Positions 1-50,344 are shown, numbered from the whole stretch's first letter. The stretch is 63,764 nt of DNA, filler included, from Gonapodya sp. JEL0774 (GCA_027604505.1; 3 parts of 3 records of this genome joined end to end with filler, not necessarily neighbours in it), one strand, 5' to 3'. The notes: a model not told the origin generated them from the letters alone. Numbers and translations are program-made.

Positions 1-3000
1 CTCGGCGGCGTCGGCAAGACACAGGTTGCACTCGAGTTTGCCCATCGAGTGAAGGACACAGAACGGGACTGCTCGGTCTTCTGGGTACCTGCTCTGAGCA
101 GAGAGAGTTCTGAACAGGCATTCACTCAAATTGGGGAATTATTGGGTATCGGGCGGGATGCGGAGAAACCAAAGGATATGGCGAAAACAGTCCACGATCA
201 TCTCAGCCAGGGAAAGGCTGGCCGCTGGCTTCTGATTGTCGATAACGCCGACGATGATCGCATTCTACGTGATATTGATCCTTTCCTTCCCAAGAATGAC
301 GAAAGCTGCATTTTGTTCACAACGCGCACGCAGACTGTGGCAGTGACAGCAGCACGAAAGGACATTGTACGACTCGACCAAATGGATGAAGTGGAGGCAC
401 GCACTTTCTTTCAAAATGCTCTGATCCGCGGAGAACTTGCTTCAAATGACCCATCTGTTACCGGTGAGCTTTTGAAGGATCTTACATACCTGCCATTGGC
501 GATCACCCAGGCCGCTGCGTACTTGAATACAAACGAGCCCACTACGTGCCAACAGTACATGGATATCCTCAAGCGCACTGAAAAGGATGCCATGGAGCTC
601 CTGAGTGTCAGTTCCAACGTTGGAGATGAACAAAGATCGGACAATGCGGTTGCAACAACTTGGGTGGTATCGTTTAACCGGATCCGTGAGCTCAACTCAA
701 CTGCTGAAAATCTCCTGCTCTTCATTGCTTGCATTGAGTCAAAAGAAATTCCGGAATCCATCTTGCCGGGTGCGGAATCTATTACAGATTTTCGAACTGC
801 GATTGGCGTCTTGGTTGGGTACAATTTTCTATCTGTGTCTCGTCAACAAGAAAACGGAACAAGCGAAGCGTTCTACACAATGCACCGTCTTGTCCATCTA
901 TCGGCCAGACTTTGGCTCAGCAAGAAATCGCGAACAGCGGAAGCGGTTAAAGATGCGTGTCGACATATCTCAAACATTTTCCCAACGCCTGAATGGAAGA
1001 ACCGTGTCCTATGGAGGAAATACTTGTCGCATACTGCGAGTATTCTCAGGATCAGTGAGGGGAAGGAAGTACTGGGGAGATACGACCTACTCCGCAAGCT
1101 GGGGAAGTGTTTGATGGCAGACGGACGATTTGGAGAGGCTGTGCCGTATCTTGAAGAATGCGTGGGTGGGAGCGAAACGTTACCTCAACATCACTTTTCT
1201 GCATCAAAAATGGACACTGTGCACAACCATCCAGCTAAAACATCAAAGTCAAAACAGTGGATTACCAAAATTGGAAGACAGCTCGGAATAACTACCAAGT
1301 CACTATGGACTCCATCTGACCTTGATCTGCGGCAGGAGCTTGCCCTCGCTTATCTTTACAGTGGCCAAGTTGACAGAGCGGCAACGTTGTTACTTTTTGT
1401 TGTCATGGAGCGGAAGCGCACAATGACAGATGGGAATCCCGTGCTCCTGCAGTCCCAACACGAACTCGCTCGTGCCTACCATGTGCAGGGGAAGAAGGAA
1501 GAGGCTCGGAACCTGTTGGAAAAAGTCTTTGCCAAGAGTAAGAATACACTTGAGAGTGACCATGTTGTGCGGCGAGCGATAGAGAGAGAATACCGCAGCT
1601 GGACAATTCGTGAGATTTACTGCAGGTGCTACTTTTATTGTTCGGACTCATGTGAAACACCCTTCTCATTTATTGACCAGTGGGCATGCTTCAAGGAGTG
1701 CATGGAAGCACAGGCACGGTGGTGTGGACCGACGTTCTTCAAGCAAATACCGATGTTGTCGATCTGTCATGTGAGTGGCAGCAATCCAGGGTGATGTCTG
1801 ACTGGGGAACTTGAGGCTCTGCTCACCTCACCTGATTTTGCTGTTATGTGGCATGCATTTGCCAGATAAATCCATTGGGAACGCTGGTGCCTCTATTGTT
1901 GCTAATGCGCTACGAGAAAACAAGACGTGGAGGTTACTCGCTCTTGAATGTGAGTTATTCTCTACAACAGCCGTCTTCCGAGCATGGTACGTAGTTTCCC
2001 AACGCAAGTGTGAGGATGCACCCGACCCGCCTCTTGCCCTGCCAGATGCCCACACAAGTAACACTCGCTCTCCGCACTTGCTTCACAGCTAACGCCATCA
2101 CCGAGCGGGGCGCCGAAGCGCTCACTGAAGGATTAAAATCAAACAGCACTTTGGTGGAGCTTGTTCTGAGCAGTGAGTTCTATGTCATCGGGTGTCTGTG
2201 TCCTCCTCACTCTCTTTGTCCAACTCGCTCCACCCTCCCGTCCCCATGCCATCACACAGCGAACAACGTCGGTGACGCAGGCGCCAGTGCTCTCGCCCAT
2301 GCCCTGGATACCAACAGGACATTGTCGTCTCTTGACCTCCAGGGCGAGTACTGATTCAGAGTGCTACAGCGCCTGCATCCTCACTCCCTCTGTTCGTCCC
2401 ACACGCTCAATCCTTCCGTCCCATACAACAATAAAGAGAACCGCATTGGCGACACAGGTGCCAGTACTCTCGCTGACGCTCTGAAGGTCAACCGGACATT
2501 GACGGCTGTCAAACTTGGGGGTGTGTGCATAGTCCATCCTCCCTCCCTCCCTCCTTTCGTCCCACACACTCAACCCTCCTGTCCCCACGCAATGACACAG
2601 TGAATCGCATTGGTGACGCAGGTGCTGGTGCTCTCGCCGAGGCACTGAAGGTCAATGGGACATTGACGTCTCTTAAGCTTCACAGTGGGTACCGATTCAC
2701 AGTCTCGCAGCGTCTCCGTCCTTCCTCCCTCCCTTCGTGGCACACGCTTAACCCTCCCATCACCATGCAACGACACAGACATCCACATTGGCGATGCCGG
2801 TGCCAGTGCTCTTGCCGAGAGTCTAAAGATCAACGGGACATTGATGACTCTCGACCTCAGTTGTGAGTACTGATTCGCAAATTCACAGCTTGTCTGTCCT
2901 TCCTCCCTCCCTTCGTTTTACACAACCAACCCTCCCGTCCCCACGCCACGACACAGTCAACCGCATCGGCGACGAAGGTGCGAGTGCTCTCGCCGAGGCA

Positions 3001-3395
3001 CTGAAGATTAATGGGACATTGATAACTCTCGACCTCCATGGTGAGTACCGATTCACAGTGTCACAGCGTCTCCGTCCTTCCTCCCTCCCTTCGTCCCACT
3101 CGCTCAACCCTCCTTTGCCCATGCAATGACAAAGGGAACAAAATCGGCGACACAGGTGCCCTTACGCTCGCCGAAGTCTTGACAAGCAACAAGACCTTGA
3201 CCCGTCTCGTCCTCTCTAGTGAGTATCAATCGCAGTGTCACATGTTCTCCTTCCTCCCTCCCACCCACACACTCAATTATCGCTTCCTCATACTACACCA
3301 TAGGGAACTGCATTGAAAAGTCGGGCGTCCGTTCTCTGGAGGCTCTTCAGAGTGCGGAGCGTACAATTAATGTGTCATTCCAGAGAAGGCTCTAA
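1..3395 (+). CDS. NLR paralogue 1 (5' truncated by window edge): NB-ARC, degenerate TPR, linker, 8 RI-type LRRs and a cap
   Basis: Walker A (LGGVGKTQ) at base 1, Walker B (LLIVDNADD), YLPLAI and MHRLVH motifs. Predicted exons: <1..1609, 1681..1770, 1866..1949, 2089..2172, 2260..2343 (GC donor), 2437..2520, 2601..2684, 2779..2862, 2957..3040, 3135..3218, 3304..3395 (TAA). All introns are phase 1 and the frame stays open. Confidence 0.85.
1866..3218 (+). repeat. Tandem exon+intron repeat, mostly ~165-178 bp period, one LRR per unit (8 units)
   Basis: Repeated 84-nt exons encoding NxIGDxGAxALAxALKxNxTLxxLxL, with homologous introns (gtgagtaccgattcacag...ccctcccgtccccatgcaatgacacag). Confidence 0.92.
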
Positions 3396-5476
3396 TATCT
3401 ATTTCTTCATTAATTAAGTGTATTTTCATGTCTGTTGTTATATTAGTACTGTCACCTGCATTTCAATTTGCTCATCAGAGCAGTGCACAAAATGAACAGA
3501 ATACCAGGACAGGCTGTTGTGGTGGTTGGGTTCACTCGAGCAGGCAATGGCAGGCAGTGCCTTCTGCCCTGGCCACGCTTGTTTGGTAATTTGATTGAAT
3601 AGTCTGCACGCAATGCAGAACAACTCTTTGGAATGCATGTCTCAATTACGCTTTGGTACACTACTTCAGCCGTGGGTTGCCCTACTCAAGCCCATCAATG
3701 CAATATTCAAAATGAAACATTCGAGTCCCTATTCTCCAAGGTAGAGTAGACTGAGAGGGCTCACCCCGACATGATGATGTGGTCATTTGCGTTGATTGAG
3801 TTGTGCGTTTCGTACCATTAATTTGGTTTCTCTTTTGGGATGGTGCATCAACTAACATGCAAGAGAATTAATTGACAACGCGATGTGTGATTCTCATGCC
3901 ACTTTGACACTTGGAACGGGCATGGCGTTTTCATTCTTCTTGTGACCATTCAAACACGACAGTTTTCACCCCAAGCCAGAGAACGGACTATCTCCCGTGT
4001 GACGTATGAGAACAAGAGCCGGCTCCAAGCTCGGAATCTGCTTAGTTCTGGGGGCTACGCTGCGCGGTCGCAGTGTGTTGCCCGCGTCTCCGTTTGCTGT
4101 TGGAGCTGGACTCCGCGACCGAAACATCCTCCAGCGGTCAACTTATTTTTAGAAGTGGCATCGGAGATTTGGAGGGGAATCTCGACTGCCGTGTACCGCT
4201 TTTTGGCCGAGCGTGGGAGCAGATGTATGTACGTCGTCGTTGGAAGAAGAATGGGGTATCCGTGAGGTTGTGGTTCAAGTCTTCAATTAGGCGAATGCGG
4301 TGTCTCGCATTCAAGCCACCAAAAATGGTCGACTGTGACATCTTTCCCTTGTATCCTATGTTTGGTTTCCTACGGCATTGCTCTTGGATTCCTATTGCGT
4401 TTCATTCTAGACAGCCACCAGAATGCGCTCCGAACAAGACATCCACCATGACTGATGCTTTGTGGTCCAGTGATATCAATCACGAAACGTGCTCGGTAGA
4501 CGTGGAACGGCAAGGAGGTTGAAGTGACTGAGTTTCGTTGAAACTGACACGAATAAGTGCTATGTATGGAGGCGAATCGACTCTCGATGATATGAAACAA
4601 CGAGAGAAGAAAACATACATCCTGCTTATTTGCAGAGAGATCTCACAAATGGACACCGATGACGATCGATAGTGTGTATGGATCCGCGAACAGCACCGAA
4701 CAGCGCCGCATAGACCGCCGGGGAAGGCCGCTCAAGTTCATGCCTATTCGCTGATGAATCGCGGAATGGTTGGAAGCAATTTTGTAGAATGTCCTCGGAT
4801 AACCATCAAATAAAGCCGGTGCAAATATCATCATTGGAGTTTCTCTTGGTCCCTCCAAACTTGTTGCTCTTCGATTCTGAACCGGGGAGGTCACGGATTC
4901 TCGGCGGCTCAACAGCCTGTGGGTGTTCCAAGTATCGTTGACGCATTTTTTTTCCCGATCATGATGCCCCTCTGAACACGTCTCTGCTCTAGTTTCCCAC
5001 ACACTCGATCACTGTCTCCCACACCCAACACCCCTGTATCCCGTACTCCCTTGTTACGGCAGAAGACATGGGGACGAAAACGAAGAACCCGCACCAAAAA
5101 CAGCAAACATCAAGGCATTCAACCAATCCATTCTCCTCGTAATCCGCTCCACGATCCTCCGTTTCTTCCGCCACGGAGCCGAGGAAAGACGTTTCGGCCT
5201 GAACGGCAGGAATGTTCAATCTGAGCACGGCCAGGCCAAATGCCGGTGAGGCCCAAATGGACCAGTTGAACCTTTGGTCTTCATGGGCTTGTGGGCGAGC
5301 GTGGGCGAGATGGGTGGAGGCTTTCCACGCCGGAAAAGAGCGGTCCATATCGGCCGCACCGGCCAATGTCCACCAGTTGACCCATTGGACGATTGAACCT
5401 TGTGAACCTTTCATGGACTGCTGATGACCCACCCCACGACCACACCTCCACCCCACCCGTCGATCCCCACCCTCAG

Positions 5477-8115
5477 ACCGACCACCTCGACCTGCCCTCT
5501 TGTGTGCACCACCACGGCATGTTCTTCAACCGGTCCTCGTGGTACGACGAGGCCACGAGCGTCACGCAGTGGTGAGTCGAGTCGGTCAGGAAAAAAGTTG
5601 GTAAAGTCGGAGGAGGGGTCGGTCTCACGCACCCCCCCTCAACACTCAAGCCCCCGCGCTTACACCCCCCCATCGCGTGTCTTCGCACCCACCTCCCACC
5701 ACGCTCACGCCCCGCCCTCCCTTTCCCCCTTCGTCAGCGGCATCACCACCAACGCAACCTACACCTACATCGTCGACCCCTCCACGCCGGGCAAGACCGG
5801 CGCCTTCTGGTACCACGGACACACACGTGGGCAGTACGTGGACGGTTTCCGCGCCCCGCTCGTCATCCACCGGAGCGGAGAAAAGGCAAGAAAAGGGCCA
5901 GAGTACCACGACGAGTACGTGGTGGCGGTGTTCGACTGGTACCACGAGGAACATAGGATGTTGCTCGGGCAGCTCTTGGACGAGGCGAATCCACGTACGT
6001 GGCGGCTGGTGTGGCGGTCGAGGGTGTTTGGGGGGTGCGGAAGCGTCCGGTACCCGAGAGAGAGAGGGCACATTCTCATCCGGTACCGGAGAGAAACACA
6101 GCACGTCCTCGTCTCCCGATCACCATCACGTCTCAGTCCACTCCACCTCTTCCCGCCCCCCCCGNNNNNNNNNNGGATCGGTCTCCCACCCCGCAGGTCA
6201 CCGACACTTTCACTATGTCCCTTCCCTTCCCTCTTCCGTTTCTTCCCCCCCCGCCCTCGCCCCCCCCTCCCCCCCCCCCCCCTACCGAAACCCCCTTTCA
6301 AACGCCCCTTCAAACCCCTCACAAACCCCCCAACCCCGCAGGCGGCGCCAAAACCGTCCTCAAATCCGCCGTGGCCCTCGTGGCGCGCGACCTAGCTCCC
6401 GGGGTTGGTTCTTGGAAAATGCCACGATCCCTGTTGTGCCGGGAATGACGTAAATGTTGAGGATCATCAATATGTCGGCGTTGGCGGGGTAGCGCAGGAG
6501 CGGGGGTGGGGTGGGGGTGGTGCGGGTAAATGGGCGGGAGTTGCTCACTGTGTGTCATCTCGTCTCTTTCTGGTTCCGATTCTTGGGCTCCTCGTCGTGT
6601 TGGTTCCCGTATCTTGAATCGTGTCCTCCCGTCTCTCGTGATCAGCAATGTTCTCCATATGGATCGACGGGACAACATTACCGTAATCGAAGGTACGTAC
6701 GTCCGCTTTCTAATCGTCCACCCCCGTCCCTCATCTCCTCTTCCCCCTGCTCACTCCACTCTTCACACTTTCCCTACCCTCACCCCCCTCTAGTCGACGG
6801 TACCAACGTAGAACCGTACCCCATCGACATGGTCACGCTTTTGGTTGGATCAGCGGATCTCGGTATCGGTCAAGAACCAGACGGACACCAATTCGTTGGT
6901 GCGTATGAACTTGGTGCGCACTGGGGGCCGGGGGAACGGGGCAATGGGGAAAGGATGTGAGTTTTTACACTGATTTTTGTGGTTACACAGTCCTGACAAT
7001 TTTGATTTCGTGCCGGACGATGTGCACTTGAGTGAGTGGAACGTGCTCCCCGGCTGACGTGCAGGTACCACAACGATTGTTAGCGTCACTCGCACCATCC
7101 CCCTGCCTTTCCCACCCTTACAGACATCACCACCGCCATCTTCTACAACTCCTCCTTCCCCACCGCCGACAGCACCACCGTCGACGAGGACCTCGAGTTC
7201 CCCGACGCCGGCCTCGTCCCCGTCGATGCCGAAGCCGAAGCCCGGGCCGACGTGTCCATCACCCTGGCGGCCACCTTCGACACGGCCGATGACGGGACCA
7301 ACCGCGCGTTTTTGAACGAGGAGGCCTACGTGATCCCCGTGACGCCAACGCTTTTGACGGCCAGTTTGATGGGGAACTTGGGGGGGGATGCGAGGGTGTA
7401 CGGGCGGACAAGTATCTGTACTGGAATTGGAGCGGAATGTCGAGATGTGAGTGGTTGTATCGCAGGGGGATGTGATGAAGCGACGGCACACGCACCTCAC
7501 ACCTTCAACCCCAAAACAGCGTCGTCCTCAACTTGGACGTCGGTAACCCCTCTTCCACCTCCACGGGCACAAGTTCCAGATGGTGGGCACCACCATGGAC
7601 GTGACCTCAGACGATGTCACGGTGAACCCGCCCGTCCACGAGGGCATCGCCAACCACATGTGGGGAGATATCATCATGATGCCTCCGGGGGGGTCCAGGA
7701 TAATTTGGTTAAGGGCGGATAATCCGGTGGCCTGGCTGTGGGGTTTTGGCGTGAATTGAGGGTCCTTAGGGTCCACCATTCCACCCCCTCCCCGTCCCGT
7801 TACCCCCTTCAGGTTCGACTGCCACGTCAAATGGCACCTCGAGTTCTATCCCCCCACTTCATCGACGCGCCCTCGCCAATCCAGGCGCTGGCCGAAACTG
7901 GCTCAGCACTACCAGGCGCTCGGCGTGTCGGTCGCGGGGAATTCGGGAGAAGACGTTGGTGACGGTGGGTTTTGGGACGTTGGGTTGGGGGACGGTGTGG
8001 TTGAGTACCAAGGTACTAGAAGTGGCGCGGCCCTGGCCATCCAGGCCAAGAAGTGTCCAAGTGGCAGAGGGCGAAGAAAGATGCTCAGTAAAGGACCCGA
8101 GCAGGAGAAGAAGTA
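5477..8115 (+). pseudogene. Fet3-like multicopper oxidase pseudogene, copy A (boundaries approximate)
   Basis: Fragments HHHGMFFN..WYD..SVTQ, FWYHGH..GQYVDGFRAPL, DWYHEEH, IINMSALA, DGTNVEPYPID, FHLHGHKFQ, RADNP and FDCHVKWHLE (His ligand lost). Frameshifts and an internal gap are present. Confidence 0.8.
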
Positions 8116-8512
8116 GAGCGTGTGGGGATGGGGATAGGGTGGGGTGGGTGGTTGGCGTGGGAGGTGGGACTTGGAACGGACGCGTGCGAGCTTTTGTTTC
8201 AGTGATTTATGTAATGTAGATATCACGTGATCTGTAGCACAGAACATTTTGATTCTATTGATGTTGCAGTTCATTGAGAGCGCCGTCCTGCGGTTCCTCT
8301 GGTGCTACGGAGCGGGAAATCCTTCGAGAGCTTCGACACGTTATCAAACTTGCTCATTCACGTTGCGTGTTTGCATCTTATACTTCTTCGTCGGCGTTTA
8401 CTTTTTTGTGAAAATCGTTTCGAGAATTGGGTTCGTCTGCAGATCCCGGCCGGGCTGATCAGTTTTAGCAGCCGGCAACTGGAATCCCTCACAGCCCCCG
8501 TTCTTGAAAACC

Positions 8513-11500
8513 ATGCTGGGCGACACCGCTGATGCCGCGAAATCGACGTTTCCAGATTCAAATGCACGAACGGGGGACATAGCAGTAGCCAAACAGGAGA
8601 TCGGCGGCTCTGCCCGTGTTCACATTGGAAACACCACTATCATCAACAACAATCATCCGACGTAAGTTTCACCATTCGAATTCACAGGGACACACTTCGT
8701 TGAGTCTCACTCATTTGATGTCAGACCTACGATCCCAACAGTGTCTCCAGCAGGTGATGCAGCTCGTCCCTCATCAGCACAGTATTACATTCCATTTCGC
8801 CGGAACAAGCAGTTCGTTGGCCGCGCCAAAACCATCGATGAACTACATCGCAAGTTGTTTCAAGAAAATTGTGGACGCGTCGCTCTAGTGGGACTCGGCG
8901 GCGTCGGCAAGACAGAGGTTGCACTCGAATTTGCCCATCGAGTGAAGGACACGGAACGGGACTGCTCGGTCTTCTGGGTACCTGCTCTGAGCAGAGAGAG
9001 TTTTGAACAGGCTTACACTCGAACTGGGGAATTATTGGGTATCGGACGCGATGCGGGGAAACAGAAGGATATTCTGAAAACAGTCCACGATTATCTGAGC
9101 CAGCAAACGGCTGGTCGATGTCTCCTGATCGTGGATAACGCCGACGATGATCGTATTCTGCGTGACATTGAACCTTTCCTTCCCGAGAGTGACGAAAGCC
9201 GGATCTTGTTCACAACTCGCACACGATCAGTGGCCGTTGCAGCAGCACAAACGCACATTGTGAGGCTCGACCAGATGGATGAAAAGGAGGCAAATTATTT
9301 CTTTCAAACTGCTCTATTTCACAAAGAACTTGCCACAGACGACCTGGTTGTTACCGCTGAGCTCTTGAAGGATCTTACCTACCTTCCCTTGGCGATCAAC
9401 CAGGCCGCTGCGTACTTGAATACAAACGAGCCCACAACGTGCCGACAGTACCTTAACATGTTGCAGGGCAGTGAGAAGTATGCCATTGCGCTCCTGAGTG
9501 ACAGCACGGGTATTGCAGCTTATCACAGATCGGACAATGCAGTTGCAACGACATGGCTGGTGTCATTCAACAGGATTCGCGAACTCGATTCCACTGCGGA
9601 AGCCATTCTGCTATTCATGGCTTGCATTGAGTCGAAGGAAATTCCGGAATCTATCTTGCCGGGTGAAAGAACTAGTCCAGCTTTTCGAAGTGCGATTGGC
9701 ATATTGGTTGGCTACGCATTTCTGTCACTGTCACATCAACAAGTAAATGGAACCAGCGATGTGGTTTACATAATGCACCGTCTTGTCCATCTGTCGGCCA
9801 AGCTTTGGCTCAGCAAGGAATTGCGAACAATGGACGTCGTTAAGAATGCGTGTCAACACATGTCGAACATTTTCCCAACACCTGAATGGAAGAATCGTGA
9901 CATTTGGAGGAAGTACTTACCGCACACTGTAAATCTTCTCGGGATTGGGGAGGGGAAGGAACTTGTTGAGCGATATGACCTGTGCCACAAACTGGCGAAG
10001 TGTATGATGGTGGATGGAAAATTTGAAGACGCTGTACCATATCTCGAAGAATGTGCTGGTAGGAAGCAGAAACTGGACACATCGCAACATGATCACCTCT
10101 ACCGCTCGATGTCAGAACTGTGGTTCAATCATATCGGCAGACAATTGAGAAACTTCACTCAAACATTTTGGAGCACACCTAACCAGTCTACTGAACGACA
10201 GTGGACGGCATCTGACCTTGATCTTCGGCAGGAGCTCGCCCTTGCTTATCTATACAGTGACCAATTTGACAAGGCGGAAGACTTGTTACTTTTTGTTATC
10301 ACAGAGAAGAAGCGCACTATGAAAGATGGGAATCTCTCGCTCCTGCAGTCCCAACACGAACTCGCTCGTGCCTACCATCTGCAGGGGAAGAGGGAAGTGG
10401 CCTGGAACCTGCTGGCACAGGTCCTTGACAACAGCAAGAATACGCTTGCGAGTTGCCATGTTGTGCTGCAAGCAATACACAAAGATTATTGGAACTGGTG
10501 GGATTGTGAGATGTGCTGCATGTGCTACTTTTCTTGTTCGTACTCATGTGACACTGCCTTATCAATTATTGACGAACAGACAGTGGTATAAGCACACACA
10601 CGGTGGTGTGGACTGACGTCCTGAAAACGAACGTGGATGTTGTCGATTTGTCAGGTGAGCGGCAACAAACCAGGGTGATGTTTGACTGTGGCAATGGAGG
10701 TGCTGCTCACCTTCCATGACTTAACTGCTACACGCCGTGCATTTACAAGATGGATCCATTGGGGATGCTGGTGCCTCAGTTGTTGCTAATGCACTACGAT
10801 ATAACAAAATGTGGAGAGTACTAAATCTCAGATGTGAGTTACTGTCTACAACAGCTGTCCTGGGAGCATGGTACGCTGTCCCCAGGCAGATGTGTCCAGA
10901 TATGGGCTAGCGCCCCATCTGCCTCTCACCCTGCCACATGCCCTCAAATGTAACGCTCGCTTGCCCGCCCTCGCTTCACAGCAAACTCCATTACTGAGCA
11001 AGGCGCCGAGGTGCTCACTGAGGGATTGAAATTAAACAGCACTTTGGTGGAGCTTGTTCTGAGCAGTGCGTTGTACGTCATGGGGTGTCCGTGTCCTCCG
11101 TCACTCCCTTCTTCCAACACGCTCCACCCTCCTGTCCTCACGCCACAACACAGAGAACTTCATTGGCAATGTTGGTGCCAGTGCTCTCGCGGAGGCTCTG
11201 AACATCAACACGACGTTGACATCTCTGGACCTCAGGGGTGAGTAGCGATTCACAAGTGACAGCGACTCCGTCCTCCCTCCCTCCTCGACGCTCAACACTC
11301 GCCCCACACCACACCACAGACAACAGCATCAATGAAACAGGTGCAAGTGCTCTCGCCGAAGCCTTGACAAGCAACAAGACCTTGATGGTCATCGACCTCT
11401 CTTGTGAGCCGTGTCACAGCATCTCAGTCCTCACTCCCTCACTTTGTCCCACACGCTCCACCCTTCCATCCCCATGTAACAACAAAGCAAACCACATTGG

Positions 11501-12838
11501 CATCATAGGTGCCAGTGCACTCGCCGAGGCTCTGAAGATCAATGGGACATTGGCGTCTCTGGACCTCCTAGGTGAGTACTCATTCACAATGTCGCGGCTT
11601 CCCCGTCCTTCCTCCCTCCCTTTGTCCCACGCGCTCAACCCTCCCGTCCCCACGCAATGGCACAGGGAACGCAATCAACGACGCAGGTGCCAGTGCTCTC
11701 GCCGAGGCTTTGAAGATCAATGGGACAATGAAGTTTCTCAACCTCCATGGTGAGTACAGATTCACAGTGACACAGTGTCTCCGTCCTCATTCCTCCCTTC
11801 GTCCCACATGCTCAACCCTTCCGTCCCCATGTAACGACAAAGCAAACGACATTGGCATCGCAGGTGCCATTGCTCTCGCCGAGGCTTTGAAGATCAATGG
11901 AGCGTTGACGTCTCTCGACCTCCGTGGTGAGTGCCGATTCACAGTGTCACAGTGTCTCCGTCCTTCCTCCCTCCCTTCGTCCCACATGCTCAACCCTTCC
12001 GTCCCCATGTAACAACAAAGCAAACCACATTGGCATCGCAGGTGCCAGTGCTCTCGCCAGTGCCCTGAAGATCAACGGGACATTGACGTCTCTTAACATG
12101 GGGGGTGAGTACCCATTCACAGTGTCACAGCGTCTCCGTCCTCCCTCTTTGTTCGCACCGCACGCTCGACCATCCTGTCCCCAGGTTATGGCGCAGGGGA
12201 CGCAATCAGGTACATAGGTGCCAGTGCTCCCTCCAGGGCTTTGAAGATCAATGGGACATTGACGTATTTTGACCTCCTAGGTGAGTACCGATTCACAATG
12301 TCGCGGCTTCCCCGTCCTTCCTCCCTCCCTTTGTCCCACGCGCTCAACCCTCCCGTCCCCACGCAATGACACAGGGAACGCAATCAGCGACGCAGGTGCT
12401 AGTGCTCTCGCCGAGGCTCTGAAGGTCAATGGGACATTGACGTTTCTTGACCTCTGTGGTGAGTACAGATTGACAGTGTCACAGTGTCACAGTGTCTCCG
12501 TCCTTCTTCCTCACTTGGTCCCACCCGGTCAATCCTCCTTTCCCCATGTAATAACACAGAGAACAAAATCAGTGACATAGGTGCCATTGCTCTCGCCGAA
12601 GCCTTGAAGAGCAATAACACCTTGACGGATCTCAACCTCTCTTGTGAGTACAAATCGCCGCTTCACAGGTATTCCGTCCTCCCTCCCACCCACACGCTCA
12701 ACACTTGCTTACCCATACCATACCATAGATAACTTCATTGGCGAGTCCGGCGTCCGTGCCCTCGAGGCCCTTCAGAGTGCCGAGCGTACAATTGATGTTT
12801 CAAACCAGAGAAGTCTCTCATATCTATTTCTTCGTTAA
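8513..12838 (+). CDS. NLR paralogue 2: amyloid-like motif, NB-ARC, degenerate TPR, linker, 11 RI-type LRRs and a cap
   Basis: Exons 8513..8661 (MLGDTADAAK...IGGSARVHIGNTTIIN), 8725..10505 (FVGR, GLGGVGKT, LLIVDNADD, MHRLVH) and 10580..10654. Then 84-nt exons starting at 10750, 10982, 11154, 11320, 11488, 11666, 11843, 12021, 12197, 12375 and 12560, and a terminal exon 12729..12838. Splice sites are canonical and the frame is open. Confidence 0.88.
10750..12643 (+). repeat. Tandem exon+intron LRR repeat array (11 units)
   Basis: 84-nt exons spaced mostly 166-185 bp apart, with near-identical introns recurring. Confidence 0.92.
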
Positions 12839-14469: not shown

Positions 14470-17400
14470 GGTCCGTCGAGAACCACAACTTGACGCTGGC
14501 AAAGTCAGTTTTGGTCTGCTCGCAATGTGTGTTCCTCTCAAGACTGAAATCATTCTTGCCCCCTACCTCTATCCCACCCCACCTGCCTACCGCCTAGACG
14601 CCACCCCCGTCGACGCGGCCCGCCTCCACTCCAACACATTCTTCGTGGCGATATTGCAGGCGCACCACGAGATGACGTACCATAGGACGGGGGGTAAGGG
14701 TGACAGCGGGGCCGGGGTGAAGATGCGAACGGTCCAGAGGGCGAGAGCACCGACCTTGACAGTGGTGGGACGGAGGATGAGACGGTGAAGGAGCAAGAGA
14801 TGGCGATGCGGTGTGCGGGGTACGGGTCGACTCGTGTGCGATGGCGTCCACAGCCGTTCACTCGCCCGCACCTCCGGCCACCACCACGACCACCACGGTG
14901 CACGCTGTCGCTGCGGTACCGACGGTGCAGATGGACGAGGTCCTTGGCCACGTGTCCGCAACCGAGTTCGGGAAGGAGGGTCGGTGCTGGCATCGGGGAT
15001 CATTTACGACGAGGAATCTGAAGGAAATTGAACATGTGAAAGGAGAGGAAGAGTTGGATGGTGTGGGATGGTGGTGGTGCCTGAGCTGTGGGGGCATGGT
15101 GGGTCGGTCAGGCTACGGTAACGAGCATCACCTCGGGGACTCGGAACCGGTTGTTCCTCACCGGGCGCCGCCGCCACCGAGCACACGCATGACCACGCAC
15201 CCCTCTTTCCCGAGTTCTTGGTGGACCCTGCGCCTTCCTCGGCCGGGTCCGCGCGGCGCGCCCGGCGGGCGGGGCGCCGCCGCGCGGGGGGGGGGGGGGG
15301 GGCGGGGGGGGGNNNNNNNNNNCCCCCCCCCGCCCCCCCCCCGCGGCGAGGGACCGTGGGTCGCCGTGTCAACTTCTACACCGGTCGGTATCCACTTCCA
15401 CACCGGTCGTCGATCACGTCACCACAGCGCCAGCCCCTTTGTCGGTGCTCCGCTGGCGCGCAACTTTGGTGACAACTGCGCCGGCGATGCAGTATTCGAT
15501 GGTGCCACCGATCCCCGTTTCAACCACACCTGTGCCCACGGATCATCGACCATCCCGAGAGACGGATCCCGAATTTGTCCTAGCATGCGCCTGGGTGCGG
15601 GTACGCGTACGACAAAGAGGGTGTGGCGGTGGCAGGCAAGGTGAGGTGTGTGGAGAGGGAGCATGACCATGCCTGGAGCGAGGGGGGCCAGCAAGGCAGC
15701 GACAGTGAAATATCTTGCGTCAAGTCCGGGTGGTGGGATTCCACCATCTGCGTCTGGTCACTGCAGACGACACTAGTCGCGATATTGCGACTCTCGTGGG
15801 AGAATGGGGCACCGTGCCTCCGACATTCGACCTCGCGGTCCGACTGGAACCACCTGCGATTCTACTCCGAACCCATCGTGTCCGCCAAGCTCACCTCGTT
15901 GCACGACATTCTCCTCAACTACGTGTCCCGCTCCGTCTTTGTCCATTCCCCCCTCACGCCTCACCTCTTCCTGTCCTGTCATCAAACCCCCACCCCACCT
16001 CTAGTCGAAGGTGCCGACGTGGAGCGATACCCCATCTCTATGGTCACCCTTTCGGTGGCGCAGTGGGTGTCCGTGTTGTCACGGCAGAGATTGAGACCGG
16101 CGGCAATTGATTGGTGGATATAAATATGATGCGTGAAAGGGCAGGGGAGTGGGTGTAGGTTATAAACATTCGTTTTCGGTTCGAACGTTGTCATTGTGTC
16201 TTGCAGGCTCCGGACATGTTTGATTTGCACCTGAGTGAATGCAAATCCACGACGGTTCCTCGTGCCAGCTGCCACGGCAACGCGAAATCACTCACACCCT
16301 CGGCTTCACACCCAGACATCACCACCACCAGCCTCTACACCTGGTCCTTCCCCACCGGCCGACGGCACCACTCTCGACGAGAACCTCGAGCTCCCCGACG
16401 CGGACCTGGTCCCCATCGATTCGAACCCCGAAACCTCTGCAGACGTGTCCATCACGCTGGCGGCACGTTCGGCGCGGCCAACGACGGATCCAACCTGCCG
16501 GTTGTCAACGTCACGCGTGACGTACGTGACACCAGTGGCGCACACGCCGTTCACGGCGAGTTCGATGGGGTACTTAGTCGGGGGACACGAGGATGTACGG
16601 GCCGACGAATACTTCTGTGCTTGCGTTGGGGCAGAATATTGAGATGTGAGTTTGGGGGGTGTGGGGGTGGGGGGTGAAGCGACGGCACACACAGACTCAC
16701 CCCACACCTCACACCGCACACCTCACACATGCACCGCCCCACTACGTCAGAATCGCCAACCTGGACGCCAGGTATCACCCCTTCGACCTCCACGGCCACA
16801 AATTTCGAATCTTGGGCACGAGCATGGACGTAACCTCGGACGACGTCAGTGTGAAACCGCCCGACCACAAGGGCATGGCGAACCGCATGAGATGGGATAC
16901 CACTAAGGTGCCGCTCGTGGGGGTCCGGAAAATTTGGTTTAGGACGGATAATCCGGGGCGTTGGCTGTGGGGTGTTCTGAACGGAGGGGGCGCGCGGTGA
17001 CAAGTCGAGCCGTGTGACGATGTGGCGGTTCACCCACCGTTCGAACCCACCCTTCGCCTCCCGTTCCACCTTCGCCCCTCCAGGTTCCACTGCCACATCG
17101 AATGGCACTCGAGTCCTGGCCGCCCACTTCATCGAAGCGCCTTCAGCAATCCAGGCATTGGCCGCCTCTGCCCCGCCACAACTGGCTCAGCACTGCCAGG
17201 CGCTCGGCGTATCGGTCACGGGCAATGCGGGATGGAAGATGTCGGTGACAGGTGGGTTTCGGTATGGCGGGTGGCGGGGTTTGTGGTGGTGTGATCGGCG
17301 CCAGATATTTTATTTTGTTCATCGGTTTTTTGTTTGTTTCGCGCCAACAGGACTTTGGCGCGTACTCGTTAGGTCCGCACGTGCAAGTGCTCGGGTTTGA

Positions 17401-17704
17401 GGCCAAGAGCATCGTGAGTACACCCCTCTATTACCATCTTCTTCATCACCTGCAACCCCCTCACGACTCCTCAGTTCCCACCCCGCCCAGCCCTCTCCCC
17501 AACCAGATCGGACTCGTCTTCTCTACCCTCTCAGCCGTCCTCGGCATCGCCGCCGTCGCGTGGTACCCCCTTTGCGGCGGCCTGGACGACGAGGAGCTGG
17601 AACTGGAAGTGGCCGCGACCACGGCCATCAAGGCCAAGAAGGGGTCCAAGTGGCAGAGGGCGAAGAACATTTTCAGTAAACGGACCGAGCAGGAGAAGAA
17701 GTAA
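14470..17704 (+). pseudogene. Fet3-like multicopper oxidase pseudogene, copy B, with C-terminal TM helix (5' boundary approximate)
   Basis: VEGADVERYPI, YHPFDLHGHKFRILG, FRTDNPGRWLW, FHCHIEWH followed by a frameshift, and TM IGLVFSTLSAVLGIAAVAWY. The tail KKGSKWQRAK..EQEKK is homologous to copy A. Confidence 0.8.
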
Positions 17705-18083: not shown

Positions 18084-21000
18084 ATGCTGGGCAACACTGC
18101 TAATGCCGCGAAATCAACGTTTCCCGATTTAAATGCACGAACGGGGGACATAGCAATAGGCAACCAGGACATCGGCGGCTCTGCCCGTGTTCACATTGGA
18201 AACACCACTATCATCAACTACAACCACCAGACGTAAGTTTCACATTTCGAATCAACAAGGAAACAGTTCGTTGACTCTCGCTCATTTAATGTCAGACCTA
18301 CGATCCCAATAGTGTATGGAGGAGTTCATTCGGCTCGTTCCTCGTCACCACAGTATCACATTCCATTTCGCCGGAACAAGCAGTTCGTGGGCCGCGCCAA
18401 AACCATCGATGAATTATATCGCAAGCTGTTTCAAGAAAACTGCGGACGCGTTGCTCTTGTGGGACTCGGCGGCGTCGGCAAGACACAGGTCGCACTCGAG
18501 CTTGCCCATCGAGTGAAGGACACAGAACGGGACTGCTCGGTGTTCTGGGTACCTGCCCTGAGCAGAGAGAGTTTTGAACAGGCATACACTCAAATTGGGG
18601 AATTATTGGGTATCGGGCGGGATGCGGAGAAACCAAAGGATATGGCGAAAACTGTCCACGATCATCTCAGCCAGGGAAAGGCTGGCCGCTGGCTTCTGAT
18701 TGTCGATAACGCCGACGATGATCACATTCTACGTGATATTGATCCTTTCCTTCCCAAGAATGACGAAAGCCGCATTTTGTTCACAACGCGAACGCAGACT
18801 TTGGCGGTGACAGCAGCACGAAAGGACATTGTACGGCTCGACCAAATGGATGAAGTGGAGGCACGCACTTTCTTTCAGAATGCTCTGATCCGCGGAGAAC
18901 TTGCTTCAAACGACCCATCTGTTACCGGTGAGCTTTTGAAAGATCTCACGTACCTACCATTGGCGATCAACCAGGCCGCTGCGTACTTGAATACAAACGA
19001 GCCTACTACGTGCCAACAGTACATGGATATCCTCAAGCGCACTGAAAAGGATGCCATGGAGCTCCTGAGTGTCAGTTCCAACGTTGGAGATCATCAAAAA
19101 TCTGACAATGCGGTTGCAACAACTTGGGTGGTATCGTTTAACCGGATCCGTGAGCTCAACTCAACTGCTGAAAATCTTCTACTTTTCATTGCTTGCATTG
19201 AGTCCAAGGAAATTCCAGAATCCATCTTGCCGGGTGCGGAATCTATTACAGATTTTCGAACTGCGATTGGCGTCTTGGTTGGGTACAATTTTCTATCTGT
19301 GTCTCGTCAACAAGAAAACGGAACCAGTGAAGTGGTTTACACAATGCACCGTCTTGTCCATCTGTCGGCTAAAATTTGGCTCAGCAAGGAATCGCGAACG
19401 GTGAAAGCTGTTAAGGATGCATGTCAACAAATCTCAAACATATTTCCAACCCCTGAATTGAAGAATCGTGACATTTGGAGGAAGTACTTACCGCATACTG
19501 CGAATGTTCTCCGGATCAGGGAGGGGATGGAACTCATTGAGAGATATGAGCTATGCTACAAGCTGGCGAAGTCTTTAATGGTAGACGGAAGATTTGCGGA
19601 GGCTGTGCCATATTTTGAAGAATGTGTCTATCGGAGAGAGACCTTGGCACAAGAGAACCATTCTGCGTCAAAAGTGAACACTGTGGACGACCACCGGGGC
19701 AAAAGATTGAAGCCAAATCTGTGGATCTTCAAAATTGGCAGGAAACTTGGCCTAAATTCCACACCACTCAAGAATACACCTGATAGGTTGACGGAACCAC
19801 TATGGACTCCGTCTGAACTTGCTCTGCGGCAAGAGCTGGCCATTGCTTATCTCTACAGTGACCGAGTTGACAAGGCAGAAGAGTTATTGCTTCTCGTGGT
19901 GACAGAGCGGAAGCGCACTATGACAGATGAGAACCCCATTCTCCTACAGTCCCAGCACGAACTTGCTCGTGCCTTCCGTTTGCAGGGGAAGAGGGACGAG
20001 GCCTTGAACCTGCTGGCACAGGTCCTTGCCGACAGCAAGAATACGCTTGAGAGTGACCATGTTGTGCGACAAGGAATAGAGCAGGATTATTGGAACTGGC
20101 TGCGTTGTGAGATGTGCTGCATGTGCTACTTTTCTTGTTCGGACTCATGTAACACTGCCTTCTCAATTATTGACAAACAGACAGTGGCGGAAGCGCGCGC
20201 GCGGGGTTGTGGACCGACGTCCTGAAAAAGAACGCGGATTTTGTCGATTTGTCAGGTGAGCGCCAACAAGCCAGGGTGATGTTTGACTGTGGCAATGGAG
20301 GTGCTGCTCACCTTACATGACTTTACTGCTACATGCTGTGCATTTACAAGGTAGATCCATTGGGAATGCTGGTGCCTCAGTTGTTGCTAATGCACTGCGA
20401 GAAACGAAAATGTGGCGAGTACTCAATCTCAGATGTGAGTTATTCTCTACAACAGCCGTCCTGGGAGCATGGTACGCTGGCCCCACGCGGATGTGTCCAC
20501 ATATGGGCTAGCGCCCCATCTGCCTCTCACCCTGCCACACGCCCTCACATGTAACAGTCGCTTGCTTGCCCTCGCTTCACAGCAAACTCCATTACTGAGC
20601 AGGGCGTCGAGGTGCTCACTGAGGGATTAAAATTAAACAGCACTTTGGTGGAGCTTGATCTGAGCAGTGGGTTCTACGTCATGGGGTGTCTGTGTCCTCC
20701 CTCACTCCCTTCTTCCAACACGCTCCACCCTCCTGTCCTCACGCCACGACACAGTCAACTTCATTGGCAATGTGGGTGCCAGTGGTCTCGCGGAGGCTCT
20801 GAACATCAACAGGACGTTGACATCTCTCAACCTCAGCTGTGAGTACCGATTCACAAGTTACGGCGACTGCGTCCTCCCTCCCTCCCCGACGCTCACCACT
20901 CGCCCCACACCACAACACAGACAACAAAATCAATGAAACAGGTGCAAGTGCTCTTGCGGAAGCCTTGACAAGCAACAAGACCTTGATGGTCATGAACCTC

Positions 21001-21503
21001 CGTGGTGAGCTGTGTCACAGCATCTCCGTCCTCACTCCCTCCCTTCGTCCCACATGCTCAACCCTTCCATCCCCATGTAACGACAAAGCAACCCACATTG
21101 GCATCGCAGGTTCCATCGCTCTTGCCGAGGCTTTGAAGATCAATGGAGCGTTGACGTCTCTCAACCTCAGTGGTGAGTGCCGATTCTCAGTATCACTGTT
21201 TCATCCGTCCTTCCTCCCTCCCTTCATCCCACACACTTATCCCTCCGGTCCCTACGCTATGACACAGAGAACTTCATCAGTGACGCAGGTGCCAGTGCTC
21301 TCGCCGAGGCTCTGAAGATCAATGGGACATTGGCGTCTCTGGACCTCCTAGGTGAGTACTCATTCACAATGTCGCGGCTTCCCCGTCCTTCCTCCCTCCC
21401 TTTGTCCCACGCGCTCAACCCTCCCATCCCCACGCAATGACACAGGGAACGCAATCAGCGATGCAGGTGCCAGTGCTCTTGCCGAGGCTTTGAAGATCAA
21501 TGG
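18084..21503 (+). CDS. NLR paralogue 3 (3' end lost in assembly gap): amyloid-like motif, NB-ARC, degenerate TPR, linker, at least 7 LRRs
   Basis: Exons 18084..18232 (…GDIAIGNQDIGGSARVHIGNTTIINYN), 18296..20106 and 20181..20255. Then 84-nt exons at 20351, 20583, 20755, 20921, 21089 and 21268, and a partial exon from 21446 running into Ns. Confidence 0.86.
20351..21503 (+). repeat. Tandem exon+intron LRR repeat array (6 full units and 1 partial)
   Basis: Same 84-nt exon/homologous intron unit as the other two arrays. Confidence 0.9.
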
Positions 21504-21603
21504 NNNNNNNNNNNNNNNNNNNNNNNNNNNNNNNNNNNNNNNNNNNNTTAATTAATTAANNNNNNNNNNNNNNNNNNNNNNNNNNNNNNNNNNNNNNNNN
21601 NNN

Positions 21604-23810: not shown

Positions 23811-23948
23811 TGTGTTGGGTGGAGGATGTGGGCTGATTTTCGGGTTGAGTGAACGTTCAAAAACTTGCGTTCCACAGAGTTGGTGGAGGACAAACTGGAC
23901 ACAGTCAGTCACCCAAGCTATTTTTCCTTGTCTCTCTCTGCTGCAGAC

Positions 23949-25485
23949 ATGGACGCTGAAGCAGACGAAGATGCTCTCCAGTCCCCTCGTCGCGGTTCAA
24001 ACTCGCGGAAGCGCTCCTTCTCGGCTGACATCTCGAGTGGAGCTCCTGGTGAAGGCCCCTTCTCAGATCCCGCGTCTGAGCGCTATTTCAAGGCATCCAA
24101 GATGACCAACAATACGATCACTCTCGGCTGTTACCTGCTTGGCGAAAACGTGACTTTTGTAGTCTCCGTAGATCCCTCAGCGACGGTGAATTCTCTCAAG
24201 AAGGCCATCAAGGCAGAGCTCTCGCAAACATTGTCAATCGTTGATGCGAGCATGTTAAGCCTGTGGAAAGTCAACGTCCCCTACACTGCGAGGGGTTCCA
24301 TCAAGGAATTGACATTGAAAGAAGAGGAAGCGATGGAGCCTTTGGAAGACGTGTCCTCTTACTTTCAGTCTCCCCTTCCACCCAAGCACATTCATCTTGT
24401 TGTCCGCCGGCCGCTCGGTGTGTTTCATTGTGTCTAGCCTTGCCGTGGAACATTGTCTATTCTCACCAAAATACTCCGACCAGCGCACATATGGGACGTC
24501 GAGGAATTCTACTCCGCTTCCGAGGACGATATCATCTCTAAGCGTCTGTCTACAGCCTTCCCCATAGATAATGGACATATTCCACTCAGCATTATACAAA
24601 ACATGCTCGCACAACCGTTACCGCTGCGTCTACCTGTAACTTTTGAGCCACCGGAAGCAGTGAAGAGGTTCACGCAGAAATTTATGCCCAACCCAAAGCA
24701 ATCCGCGGACGGTGACTTTTGGCCGCACTTAATCAAAGATGTCTGCTCAGTAAGGTTGATTGAGGCTCAAGGATCCTCCGAGATGACCGGTATGTCGCGG
24801 TACAATAGGAGTTTGGATGAAAAGTACATACAATCACTGATCCCACCATGTACAGGTGTGCGTTTGTGGGATTCTGTAACCACTGACGTACTGCGACACT
24901 TAGGGCGCTCATGTGGTCTGATAACAGAATCGGACCGAAATGTTGTTGACACAACTACCACGTCCCAGCCGGGGTATCGCATCCTACCTGACAGTCTCTT
25001 CTATCTCGAAAGCGTCTTGATGCTCAAGGGCGAAGAGAAGAAAGAGCGCCTCATCAACAGTGCAACGAACGATTTGATGACCAAAGCCAGGTCACTCACA
25101 CCATTATTTTACGGGCACATACAAACGATGTTTGCGTATGCCGCAGATTTCCACACCATTCGGTAGGGCTATTTTTTTTTTGNNNNNNNNNNNNNNNNNN
25201 NNNNNNNNNNNNNNNNNNNNNNNNNNNNNNNNNNNNNNNNNNNNNNNNNNNNNNNNNNNNNNNNNNNNNNNNNNTAGGTACGTTCCACAGAGCAGGATCG
25301 CGGGCGCACCAGTTGAGTACACGTATGGCTGTGATTTATGGATGGTCGGCAAGATGATGCAGGATTTGACACTTTGGAGGACTTCCAGTGAATTTGCGCA
25401 GTTCGGCTTGCGCCTGCAGCAAGTAATGCACGAAAATGACCAAATGATTGCTGCAATGTTCCTGGATGATGATTTTCTAAGATAA
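23949..25485 (+). CDS. Crinkler (CRN)-like protein: N-terminal ubiquitin-like CRN domain, PD-(D/E)XK-like domain, possible kinase-like tail (gap inside)
   Basis: ITLGCYLLGE..FVVSV..LKKAIK..LSLWKV..HIHLVVRRP is the CRN N-terminal signature. Intron 24418..24483. ILPDSLF..KGEEK follows, and DLWMVGKMM lies after the gap. Confidence 0.78.
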
Positions 25486-38713: not shown

Positions 38714-40412
38714 TCACCTCCCTTGCCCCGTTCCTGCCCCCCCTCCTACTCCAATCACCTCGGTCTCTGTTCCCATCCTCCTACTTCCACTCCTTGTTCC
38801 CTCCCCTCCACCTCCACCAAACCTCCCAACCCAATCACCTCCTCCCAAATTGAACCCATCGCCTCTCGATTCCACACCCCGCGCGGGCCACGTTCCTGAA
38901 GGTGGTGGCGACGGTCTGGTGGGGTACATTGATCGCTGCGGTGGTCCAGCGACGTCACCATGGTACTTGGACGAGAGAGGTGGTGTGGTAGGGACAGGGC
39001 GGAACGGGTTTGAGGGGGGAGGTGCTGGGGCGAGGTTAAGGCGGGAGTCGTACCGGTGTGTGAAGGAGAGTGTATTGAGTGGTAGTTGGGAGGGGACAGG
39101 TGGGTCGCGGGTGTCGCTGACGCAGGCCATAGGGAACGCGCCAGAGGTACTCGTACGGGTGTTCAGTCCCTAAATGAAGAGTGGGAAGTGCGTGGGGGGT
39201 AAATTTGATCAATACAGTAAAGATTATCGACAAACATGGCGGAGATGACAAACAATTTGCACTCACCGATCCCCACCCGTCGGCAAACTCCAAGTTCACA
39301 AAAATGGCGTCCCCCACTGTGATGTTTAATTCATCCGTGTCCTGTGCTTCAAAGTCAGCAACAGCATACATGAGCCGCTGAACTGTGATGGGTGGTTGGG
39401 GTTCATTAGCTGGGGGAGAAGATGGGAATGACATGAGTTGGGTGCGGAGGGTCCCAACCTCGCGTTCCAGGGTTGCATTTTTTGTGGAGAGGGTGCGGAC
39501 TTCTGTCTGGAGGTCCTGGATTCCTGCTTCTAGAGTGGTGTTCCTGGCTTGAACTTCCAAGATCCGTTGCTCCAGCTCCTGCACTTTGCTCACAGCCACT
39601 GCTGCTGTCACCGACAGCTCCTCATTCCGCCCCTTCACTTGATCTAACTCTCCACGTAGCTCCCTAATTTCGCGATCCTTGTCCGTGAGGAGAGTGAGAA
39701 GGGCTTCAGAGGGTTGAGAGAATGAGGAGGGTACTGTGGTGCGTGGGCGGGATGGGACTGGAGTGGGAGGGTGGGATTGATGGTCTTGCAGGGTTTGCAG
39801 GAATTGAGTGTCAGGCTGTTCGCGAGCGGCATCCAGTTCTCTCTGGGTGACCACAGCACCCTGAGAGAGGAGGAGGCGGACGATGGGGAGGGAAGGGCGA
39901 AGAGTGAAGGGAGAGATGCAGCGGTCCTTGTGCTCCTTGGGATCCTTCAAGTGAACGTTTCCCCCCTTGAGACTGATGGAGAGTTTGTTGTCCGAGGTGG
40001 GTAAATCGCCTGTTCTGCCATTCCACCCTGTCCACTTCCCACCCCTCGCCACCGCCAGTGTCAGGGCAGAAGGGAACGAATTTGTCTGTATCCAACGTTT
40101 CCTGTCCCAATCGTCCGCGGCCGACGATGAAGACCAGTACGCGATCTTCCATTCAAAAACCCCGTTCGCATCAGCACCTCCTTCGAGCAGGGCCTTGACA
40201 ATGTCCTCATGAGCATGCAGAATCGCCAACGCCAACGCCGACTCGCACTCCACAGTGTCTGTTTTGTTCCCCTGCACCCATTGAAACCTGCATGTCAATG
40301 TGACCTTCTTCCTCGCGTTCGGGTTCGCTCCATCCGCGAGCAGCTGTCGCACCAGCTGCGCCTGGCCGTTCTCCACGGCCTCGATCAGTCGGATATCGCG
40401 AGCAGTAGACAT
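38714..40412 (-). CDS. Ankyrin repeat-coiled coil-SH3 protein with Pro/Gly-rich tail
   Basis: LIEAVENGQAQLVRQLLADGANPN and ESALALAILHAHEDIVKALLEGGADAN ankyrins, then a heptad region. SH3 YAVADFEAQDTDEL..DGWGS|GLNTRTSTSGAFPMACV with intron 39170..39266. Confidence 0.85.
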
Positions 40413-50300: not shown

Positions 50301-50344
50301 GTCTGGGGGACGGTGGTGGCAAAACATTTCTCCCGGCCAATCGG

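Follow-up and report, generated by a model that had tools for sequence, protein, structure and literature searches.

The window analyzed here, a stretch of 63,764 nucleotides (nt) from Gonapodya sp. JEL0774 (GCA_027604505.1), consists of three contigs joined by N-flanked linkers. Its first contig (1-21503) carries three tandem genes on the plus strand, in which predicted splicing joins an NB-ARC domain and tetratricopeptide repeats (TPRs) to an array of 84-nt exons that encode one leucine-rich repeat (LRR) each. We propose, with a probability of roughly three in four, that this array is the predicted C-terminal sensor of a fungal NLR-type receptor, in which the repeats have been recombined and the surface codons change faster than silent sites. 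The three paralogues have open spliced frames, their repeat units are mosaics, one of the genes is chimeric, and three codons of the repeat are under selection.

The gene models were built by coordinates on the sequence, and after predicted splicing each of the three genes is a single open frame that continues to the stop and, in gene 2, encodes 1,012 amino acids (aa). Gene 2 begins with an exon of 50 aa (8513..8661), for which public model P0240 has the identical start. The second exon (8725..10505) encodes the NB-ARC domain with intact Walker A/B motifs and then the TPRs, as identified by Pfam, alignment and AlphaFold. A predicted 74-nt phase-1 intron (10506..10579), common to all three genes, separates the TPRs from a 75-nt linker exon of phase 1-1 (10580..10654), which has an LRR-like first strand at its end and no Met in the LRR frame. 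The array itself (10750..12643), delineated by the models and by repeat finding, comprises 11 exons encoding LRRs of the ribonuclease inhibitor (RI)/NLRC3 type, with starts at 10750, 10982, 11154, 11320, 11488, 11666, 11843, 12021, 12197, 12375, and 12560. The last exon (12729..12838), homologous to that of gene 1, adds a capping LRR and the stop codon. Gene 1 (1..3396), whose 5′ end is missing, is modeled with an NB-ARC-TPR exon (1-1609), a linker (1681-1770), eight LRR exons (1866-3218), and a last exon from 3304; public model P0002 agrees as far as a GC donor. Gene 3 (18084..21503, public model P0001) has exon 1 at 18084-18232, the NB-ARC-TPR exon at 18296-20106, the linker at 20181-20255, and LRR exons at 20351-21503, the last of which is cut by the contig end.

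A sequence-only reading of this DNA had stated that all complete LRR exons are 84 nt long with phase 1-1 borders and that the copy numbers are 8, 11, and at least 7. This is true for 25 of 25 complete exons, each of which encodes one 28-aa LRR and preserves the frame, and the counts are eight in gene 1, 11 in gene 2, and six complete plus one cut in gene 3. The acceptors of the LRR exons are all AG; the donors are GT in 24 cases and GC in one (2344). The GC donor follows the third LRR exon (L3) of gene 1, where P0002 reads through and then stops. Across the three genes, the linker exon measures 75 or 90 nt and the TPR-to-linker intron 71-74 nt, and the introns within the gene 2 array, 82-148 nt long, are mutually homologous from L2 onward. 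Tandem Repeats Finder returns a period of 178-179 nt for the array, and therefore exon and intron repeat as one unit. Since the ATG at 10750 does not lie in the reading frame of the LRRs, the array does not begin a gene. Pfam detects LRR_6 in P0240 with E=1.1e-22, and LRR exons taken singly give a weak Pfam match in one case out of five. An nhmmer search of the window with a DNA profile, directed at spare or reverse-strand LRR exons, yields 27 hits, all of them annotated plus-strand exons.

The NB-ARC domain scores above the Pfam cut-off in three of three genes (gene 2: NB-ARC E=7.5e-18, TPR_12 E=1.3e-5), and the Walker A/B motifs are conserved in the alignment. The TPRs share one exon with NB-ARC, and the LRRs are joined to them by predicted splicing only. 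In each gene the long NB-ARC-TPR exon ends at a phase-1 donor, and public models P0240, P0001, and P0002 contain the same TPR-to-linker intron. In genes 2 and 3, no Met lies upstream in the LRR frame, and the unspliced frame stops within the linker exon. The read-through stops differ between paralogues, falling in or beside the linker exon, and all four differences between genes 2 and 3 in this intron are replacements in the read-through frame. Because the stops vary, the LRR frame of genes 2 and 3 lacks a Met, the read-through changes are replacements in four of four cases, and the public models agree, we consider that the intron is probably used. By these models, the 84-nt exon array is most likely the C-terminal part of an NB-ARC-TPR NLR, with repeats outside the WD/ANK/TPR/HEAT set described so far for fungal NLRs. 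Alternatively, the array could be a separate gene or an unexpressed tail, the product being an ordinary NB-ARC-TPR protein with a Cys-rich end. In each of the three genes the read-through frame does continue without a stop for 28-61 aa, the TPRs are the last element of public model P0046, and the linker exon of gene 1 has a Met; but the intron features just given argue against this alternative, as does purifying selection across the LRR core, where pN/pS (replacement relative to silent change) is 0.19, and we consider it very unlikely.

The predicted structures are of uneven quality. The AlphaFold model of P0240, computed with 40 sequences, has a predicted local distance difference test (pLDDT) score of mostly 80-96 over the NB-ARC-TPR block, and a single-sequence fold of P0031 reaches pLDDT 64-81 over its LRRs and is poor elsewhere. 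Foldseek ranks NOD2 first for both models, with low whole-chain TM-scores. Matches at the level of domains include the NB-ARC of NRC1 (TMt 0.71) and the LRR of NLRP1 (TMt 0.79).

The repeat units have exchanged sequence. Near-identical tracts of 55-260 nt connect non-equivalent positions within and between genes, and their ends fall inside exons as well as introns. One 217-nt tract on the plus strand (11507..11723) matches gene 3 at 21287-21503 with six mismatches, and an overlapping tract of 166 nt, also on the plus strand, has its partner at 12271-12436 with seven. As the sequence-only reading had noticed, the introns starting at 11572, 12281, and 21352 are nearly identical (97%-98%) behind exons that are only 75%-86% identical. 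For a given exon, the intron before it and the intron after it show no correlation (rho -0.05), whereas either end of the exon is weakly correlated with the intron it adjoins (0.24-0.34), and a PHI-type test on 87 informative sites gives p=0.0005. The proposal of unequal crossover and cassette exchange thus stands as regards recombination among units, but not with the whole exon as the unit of exchange, since the tracts ignore exon borders. We also considered that crossovers occur mainly in mid-exon and move blocks of strand plus intron; this is only partly borne out, the exon middle and 3′ part being the most tightly linked (rho 0.52). On a larger scale, gene 3 is 95%-97% alike with gene 1 across NB-ARC, up to about 19300, and 88%-95% alike with gene 2 after 20030, from the last TPR through L4. 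Judged by similarity along the gene (18084..21503, plus strand), with a gene-1-like front and a gene-2-like rear, gene 3 is a chimera, indicating a sensor swap between paralogues. An assembly artefact could in principle produce both the mosaic pattern and the copy numbers, and the contig break does fall inside a tract common to genes 2 and 3. No two units are identical, however, and 25 of 25 exons are in frame; exact repeats measure 126 nt at most, the second longest 78 nt, and therefore misassembly is unlikely. We regard this explanation as highly improbable.

Selection was evaluated on 19 units of this one genome, L3 onward, with 28 codons each; the six L1 and L2 units, which are divergent, were excluded. 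Variability is highest (2.4-3.3 bits) at the codon split by the intron, at its immediate predecessor, at the second codon downstream of it, and at one position of the strand. The split codon had been placed in the variable strand, and it indeed lies directly before the conserved Asn and is the top-variability column at 3.33 bits. A per-site dN/dS comparison, proposed earlier as a check, finds an excess of replacements at the codons flanking the intron (M2a vs M1a, 2dL=35.9, omega 4.2). The split codon, the codon one before, and the codon two after each reach P>=0.99 for positive selection under M2a, and omega is still above 1 when the split codon is omitted (2dL=26.9). With trees of the flanking introns instead, 2dL is 25.4, compared with a maximum of 16.0 in 75 neutral simulations with recombination; the signal therefore survives the control for recombination. 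When genes 2 and 3 are compared at four positional pairs, the variable sites differ by 12 replacements and no silent change, against an intron divergence of about 8%. Positive selection at the three codons around the intron is thus supported. By analogy to RI-type LRR structure, the selected positions would correspond to the strand end and following loop and are inferred to face the ligand. It is also conceivable that the fused protein is real while tandem homology drives the repeat turnover passively, as a side effect, and the variable codons simply lack constraint. Any 178-nt tandem repeat would be expected to recombine, the data are few, and two of the three selected codons touch a splice site. 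Nevertheless, the omega above 1 without the split codon, the result beyond the recombination control, and the 12-to-0 count speak against passive turnover, which we judge to be unlikely. The wider claim of a diversification mechanism holds for recombination, copy-number differences between paralogues, and the excess of replacements at intron-flanking codons, but not for the exon as the unit of exchange or for the harmlessness of all skips.

On that last point, any exon had been said to be dispensable without a frameshift. The frame is kept in every skip, but the junction reads TAG in seven of 123, including the single skip of L2 in gene 2. The remaining 116 are open; 76 of the 123 alter the junction residue or create a stop, and 47 leave the residue unchanged. 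As far as predicted junctions go, the layout of the array permits exon skipping. Regulated skipping of exons, or recombination in somatic cells, could diversify the array within the individual as well, in addition to, and not in place of, the evolutionary turnover proposed above. The number of open and residue-changing junctions favors this idea, and there are precedents in the available parts of the literature, where splicing of LRR exons is shown for NLRP3 and within-individual diversification is proposed for brown-algal ROCO genes (PMC6642158, PMC11378527). The seven TAG junctions do not, nor does the lack of intronic or reverse-strand spare LRR exons in the window, unlike Ectocarpus, and equal exon length and phase are obtainable from tandem duplication alone. 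We find this addition doubtful.

Several observations weigh against the array being the sensor of such a receptor. If the TPR-to-linker intron were retained, each of the three genes would encode an NLR that lacks LRRs and has a Cys-rich tail (read-through regions 10506-10591, 20107-20225, and 1610-1794, plus strand). The public models are possibly ab initio and do not constitute transcript proof, and P0240 contains errors: it uses two other acceptors, lacks both the last exon and the eleventh of the LRR exons, and is fused to the next oxidase gene. AlphaFold assigns the LRR part of P0240 a pLDDT of 50-69 or less. L9 of gene 2 (12197-12280) is degenerate, with the ladder Asn changed to Asp and core Leu residues to Pro and Phe. 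The codon site models are our own implementation, applied to 28 codons; the five sites of xxLxLxx chosen a priori have a pN/pS of only 1.28, and pairwise Fisher tests are marginal (p 0.03-0.16) with a site set that is partly post hoc. As for L9, the intron downstream of it is 97% identical to that downstream of L5, and we consider it a candidate decaying or skipped unit.

The N-terminus adds further points of the same kind. A HET-s-type amyloid-signaling-like repeat is found at residues 23-40 of gene 2 (8579-8632, plus strand). HET-S (PF17108) is the best Pfam match of the 50-aa exon 1, with E=0.018 in gene 2 and 0.0066 in gene 3, both below the cut-off. The HRAM rule calls for a single N-terminal 21-aa motif with hydrophobic residues at positions 3, 6, 8, and 14 and Gly at 17, according to the available text of PMC5485727; the exon-1 motif fits at four of five positions and has Gln at position 6. 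Comparison of exon 1 with the PDB returns no meaningful match. No partner gene with the motif (a HeLo-type effector with two C-terminal repeats) is present in the six frames of 1-21503, where the search finds the two NLR motifs only; the 5′ side of gene 1 is off the contig. The exon-1 motif is accordingly a weak sequence lead and does not establish membership in the amyloid-signaling NLRs. Paralogue P0241 features a tandem pair of HET-s-like motifs at residues 275-365, behind 270 unannotated residues. The pair may stem from duplication of the first exon or from an effector gene lying upstream that the gene model merged with the NLR.

Among the matches listed, the closest labeled proteins are those of Gonapodya sp. 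(labels by source), a monoblepharid fungus according to the supplement table of PMC12258605, and the closest NB-ARC relatives are fungal TPR-type NLRs. The public models of genes 1-3 and their paralogues combine NB-ARC-TPR with LRR parts. In the best 120 of 2,168 and the best 120 of 667 matches, five NB-ARC proteins have an LRR profile, and all are from Gonapodya. In the distant paralogues P0003, P0004, P0028, P0031, P0241, and P0369 the TPRs run into the LRR start, and P0028 additionally bears a PNP_UDP effector domain. The partial models P0003, P0028, and P0241 stop at the residue of the window's intron positions, an indirect sign that the exon border may be common to distant paralogues. The NB-ARC-TPR core is 34%-42% identical to Pezizomycotina proteins, the listed NB-ARC-TPR matches from outside Gonapodya, which come from Pezizomycotina or lack a taxon name, are at 34%-45%, and the bacterial relatives at 23%-34%. 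In an unrooted tree of 123 rows, 12 Gonapodya-type rows lie on one side of a branch with an SH-aLRT of 98. The rooted tree has 55 rows (10 Gonapodya, 31 ascomycete, and the 14 best of 132 bacterial open reading frames), omitting rows without a taxon name, two near-duplicate ascomycete rows, and window duplicates. Here, the 31 ascomycete rows form one clade (100/100), and the 10 Gonapodya rows branch outside it without resolution. The unrooted tree had suggested that the NB-ARC was transferred from Pezizomycotina, but this is unsupported after rooting with the 14 bacterial rows.

The LRR parts match RNI-like proteins of Mortierellaceae and NLRC3-like proteins of animals at 42%-65% identity (best 120 of 924). 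Of the 119 new matches in this set, none has an NB-ARC of the window type; in 28, a Walker A motif precedes the LRRs, one of these being from a named fungus (P0185, Linnemannia, NACHT + LRR). Both parts are matched in three of 129 new representatives, namely P0369 (Gonapodya), P0484, and P0487 (Cladochytrium). P0487 combines a P-loop with 15 LRRs, its NB match being weak and without a Pfam NB call. P0484 holds TPR, two NB-ARC domains, and LRRs in one model. A metagenome scan with the NB-ARC exon gave 45 pattern matches and no relative among them.

The intron of NOD2 probably lies about three codons further 5′ than that of the window LRR exons. The parallel with the exon-modular LRRs of vertebrate NOD2/NLRC3 claimed by the sequence-only reading holds: the available text of PMC6642158 describes one LRR per exon in human NOD/NLRC genes, and NLRC3 proteins are among the LRR matches. 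In both, each frame-preserving exon encodes one 28-aa LRR of the RI type, and the exon border falls within the β-strand or beside it (PMC6642158). The NOD/NLRC genes differ in that theirs is a NACHT without TPR, while the window genes have NB-ARC and TPR and introns that are homologous parts of the repeat. Plant NB-ARC-LRR resistance proteins have an NB-ARC switch and a C-terminal LRR diversified at the β-strand. Compared with these, the window genes have another LRR class, a TPR block in between, and no TIR or coiled-coil (CC) domain. Brown-algal ROCO LRR and NB-ARC-TPR genes, as far as the available parts of PMC3341825 and PMC11378527 describe them, also have one repeat per exon in variable number, with intra- and intergenic recombination and diversifying selection, both of which are found in the window repeat exons. 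In the algal genes, the LRR exons are 72 nt long with phase 2 and belong to a ROCO GTPase, spare or reversed exons lie in the long introns, and splicing data exist; in the window, the exons are 84 nt long with phase 1, belong to an NB-ARC-TPR, and have no spare copies. Fungal NB-ARC-TPR NLRs, among them amyloid-motif NLRs of the NWD2/HET-S type (PMC4986451, PMC5485727, in part), share the NB-ARC-TPR core, the tandem cluster, the repeat turnover with positive selection, and, instead of an effector domain, a short putative amyloid-like motif at the N-terminus. The window genes add an RI-type LRR array after the TPRs, one repeat per exon, and no adjacent effector gene was found on contig 1-21503.

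Fungal NLRs are said to be without LRRs in the available text of four papers (PMC4986451, PMC5658179, PMC9815663, and PMC12881547, a 2025 review), one of which proposes loss of the NOD-LRR layout in fungi, and to carry predominantly other repeats (PMC10197012, likewise in part). A screen of 122 proteomes including G. prolifera allowed LRRs (PMC12258605); its available text reports no LRR NLR, the readable supplement text does not contain 'LRR', and the available text of the preprint agrees. A survey of LRR proteins in fungi outside the Dikarya removed those that combine two repeat types (PMC13449251, available part). The accessible portions of PMC11291939, on NACHT-WD40 receptors of Mortierellomycota, leave LRR unmentioned, and those of PMC7145615 add nothing on fungi. 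We found no published fungal NB-ARC-TPR-LRR gene in a literature search that covers few subscription journals, and no publication on 84-bp exons with NLRC3 and intron phase. The exon-per-LRR layout is already known; its predicted place on a fungal NB-ARC-TPR is new.

A multicopper-oxidase-like gene (5700..8116, plus strand, Cu-oxidase_3 E=5.3e-5, boundaries approximate) lies between genes 1 and 2, and a second copy is found near 15500-17704, so that oxidase copies alternate with NLR genes. Judging from this order, an oxidase gene and an NLR gene together form the duplicated unit, which spans about 9.5 kb with approximate boundaries; its spacers are 70%-77% alike. The N-flanked linker at 21504..21603 lies between unrelated contigs, the public models likewise put the length of the first contig at 21503, and DNA past that position is not a neighbor of the NLR genes. 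The second contig encodes a Crinkler N-terminal domain at 23853-24437 (Pfam E=2.3e-21). On yet another contig than the NLR genes, 53129-56903 reads as PNP_UDP, then NB-ARC, then an intron-free array of 9.3 x 126-nt TPRs (79% matches); a 19-nt duplication at 54303-54340 falls on its P-loop region and apparently breaks the frame. A further PNP_UDP frame occupies 51768-52712, and a stretch at about 50258-51634 is kinase-like. Other contigs contain a 19-repeat Sel1 protein (44374-47334) and an ankyrin/coiled-coil/SH3 protein (39036-40544).

Homologous exon-plus-intron units of about 178 nt would misalign, and unequal crossover or gene conversion would then alter the repeat number and mix strands with the frame intact. 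From fungal NLR biology, ligand bound at the LRR/TPR region may release the NB-ARC switch, upon which the receptor would oligomerize and its N-terminal motif could template an effector encoded elsewhere. In a more ambitious version, an early-diverging fungus arrived at an NB-ARC-LRR immune receptor of its own, separately from the plant and animal lineages: an LRR cassette with one repeat per exon was grafted onto an amyloid-signaling NB-ARC-TPR protein, and skipping or recombination of the exons supplies a within-individual sensor repertoire; in this full form we think it improbable. The exon layout is less surprising than the predicted LRR sensor of a fungal NLR, a feature described as absent. 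The Gonapodya-type NB-ARC-TPR-LRR family, together with the P-loop-LRR models of Linnemannia and Cladochytrium, would break the no-LRR rule of the surveys and reviews of 2014 to 2025 and, if true, would represent a further origin of the nucleotide-binding site (NBS)-LRR layout. With compact 178-nt units and three strongly selected codons in each, these genes would make exon-modular receptor diversification testable.

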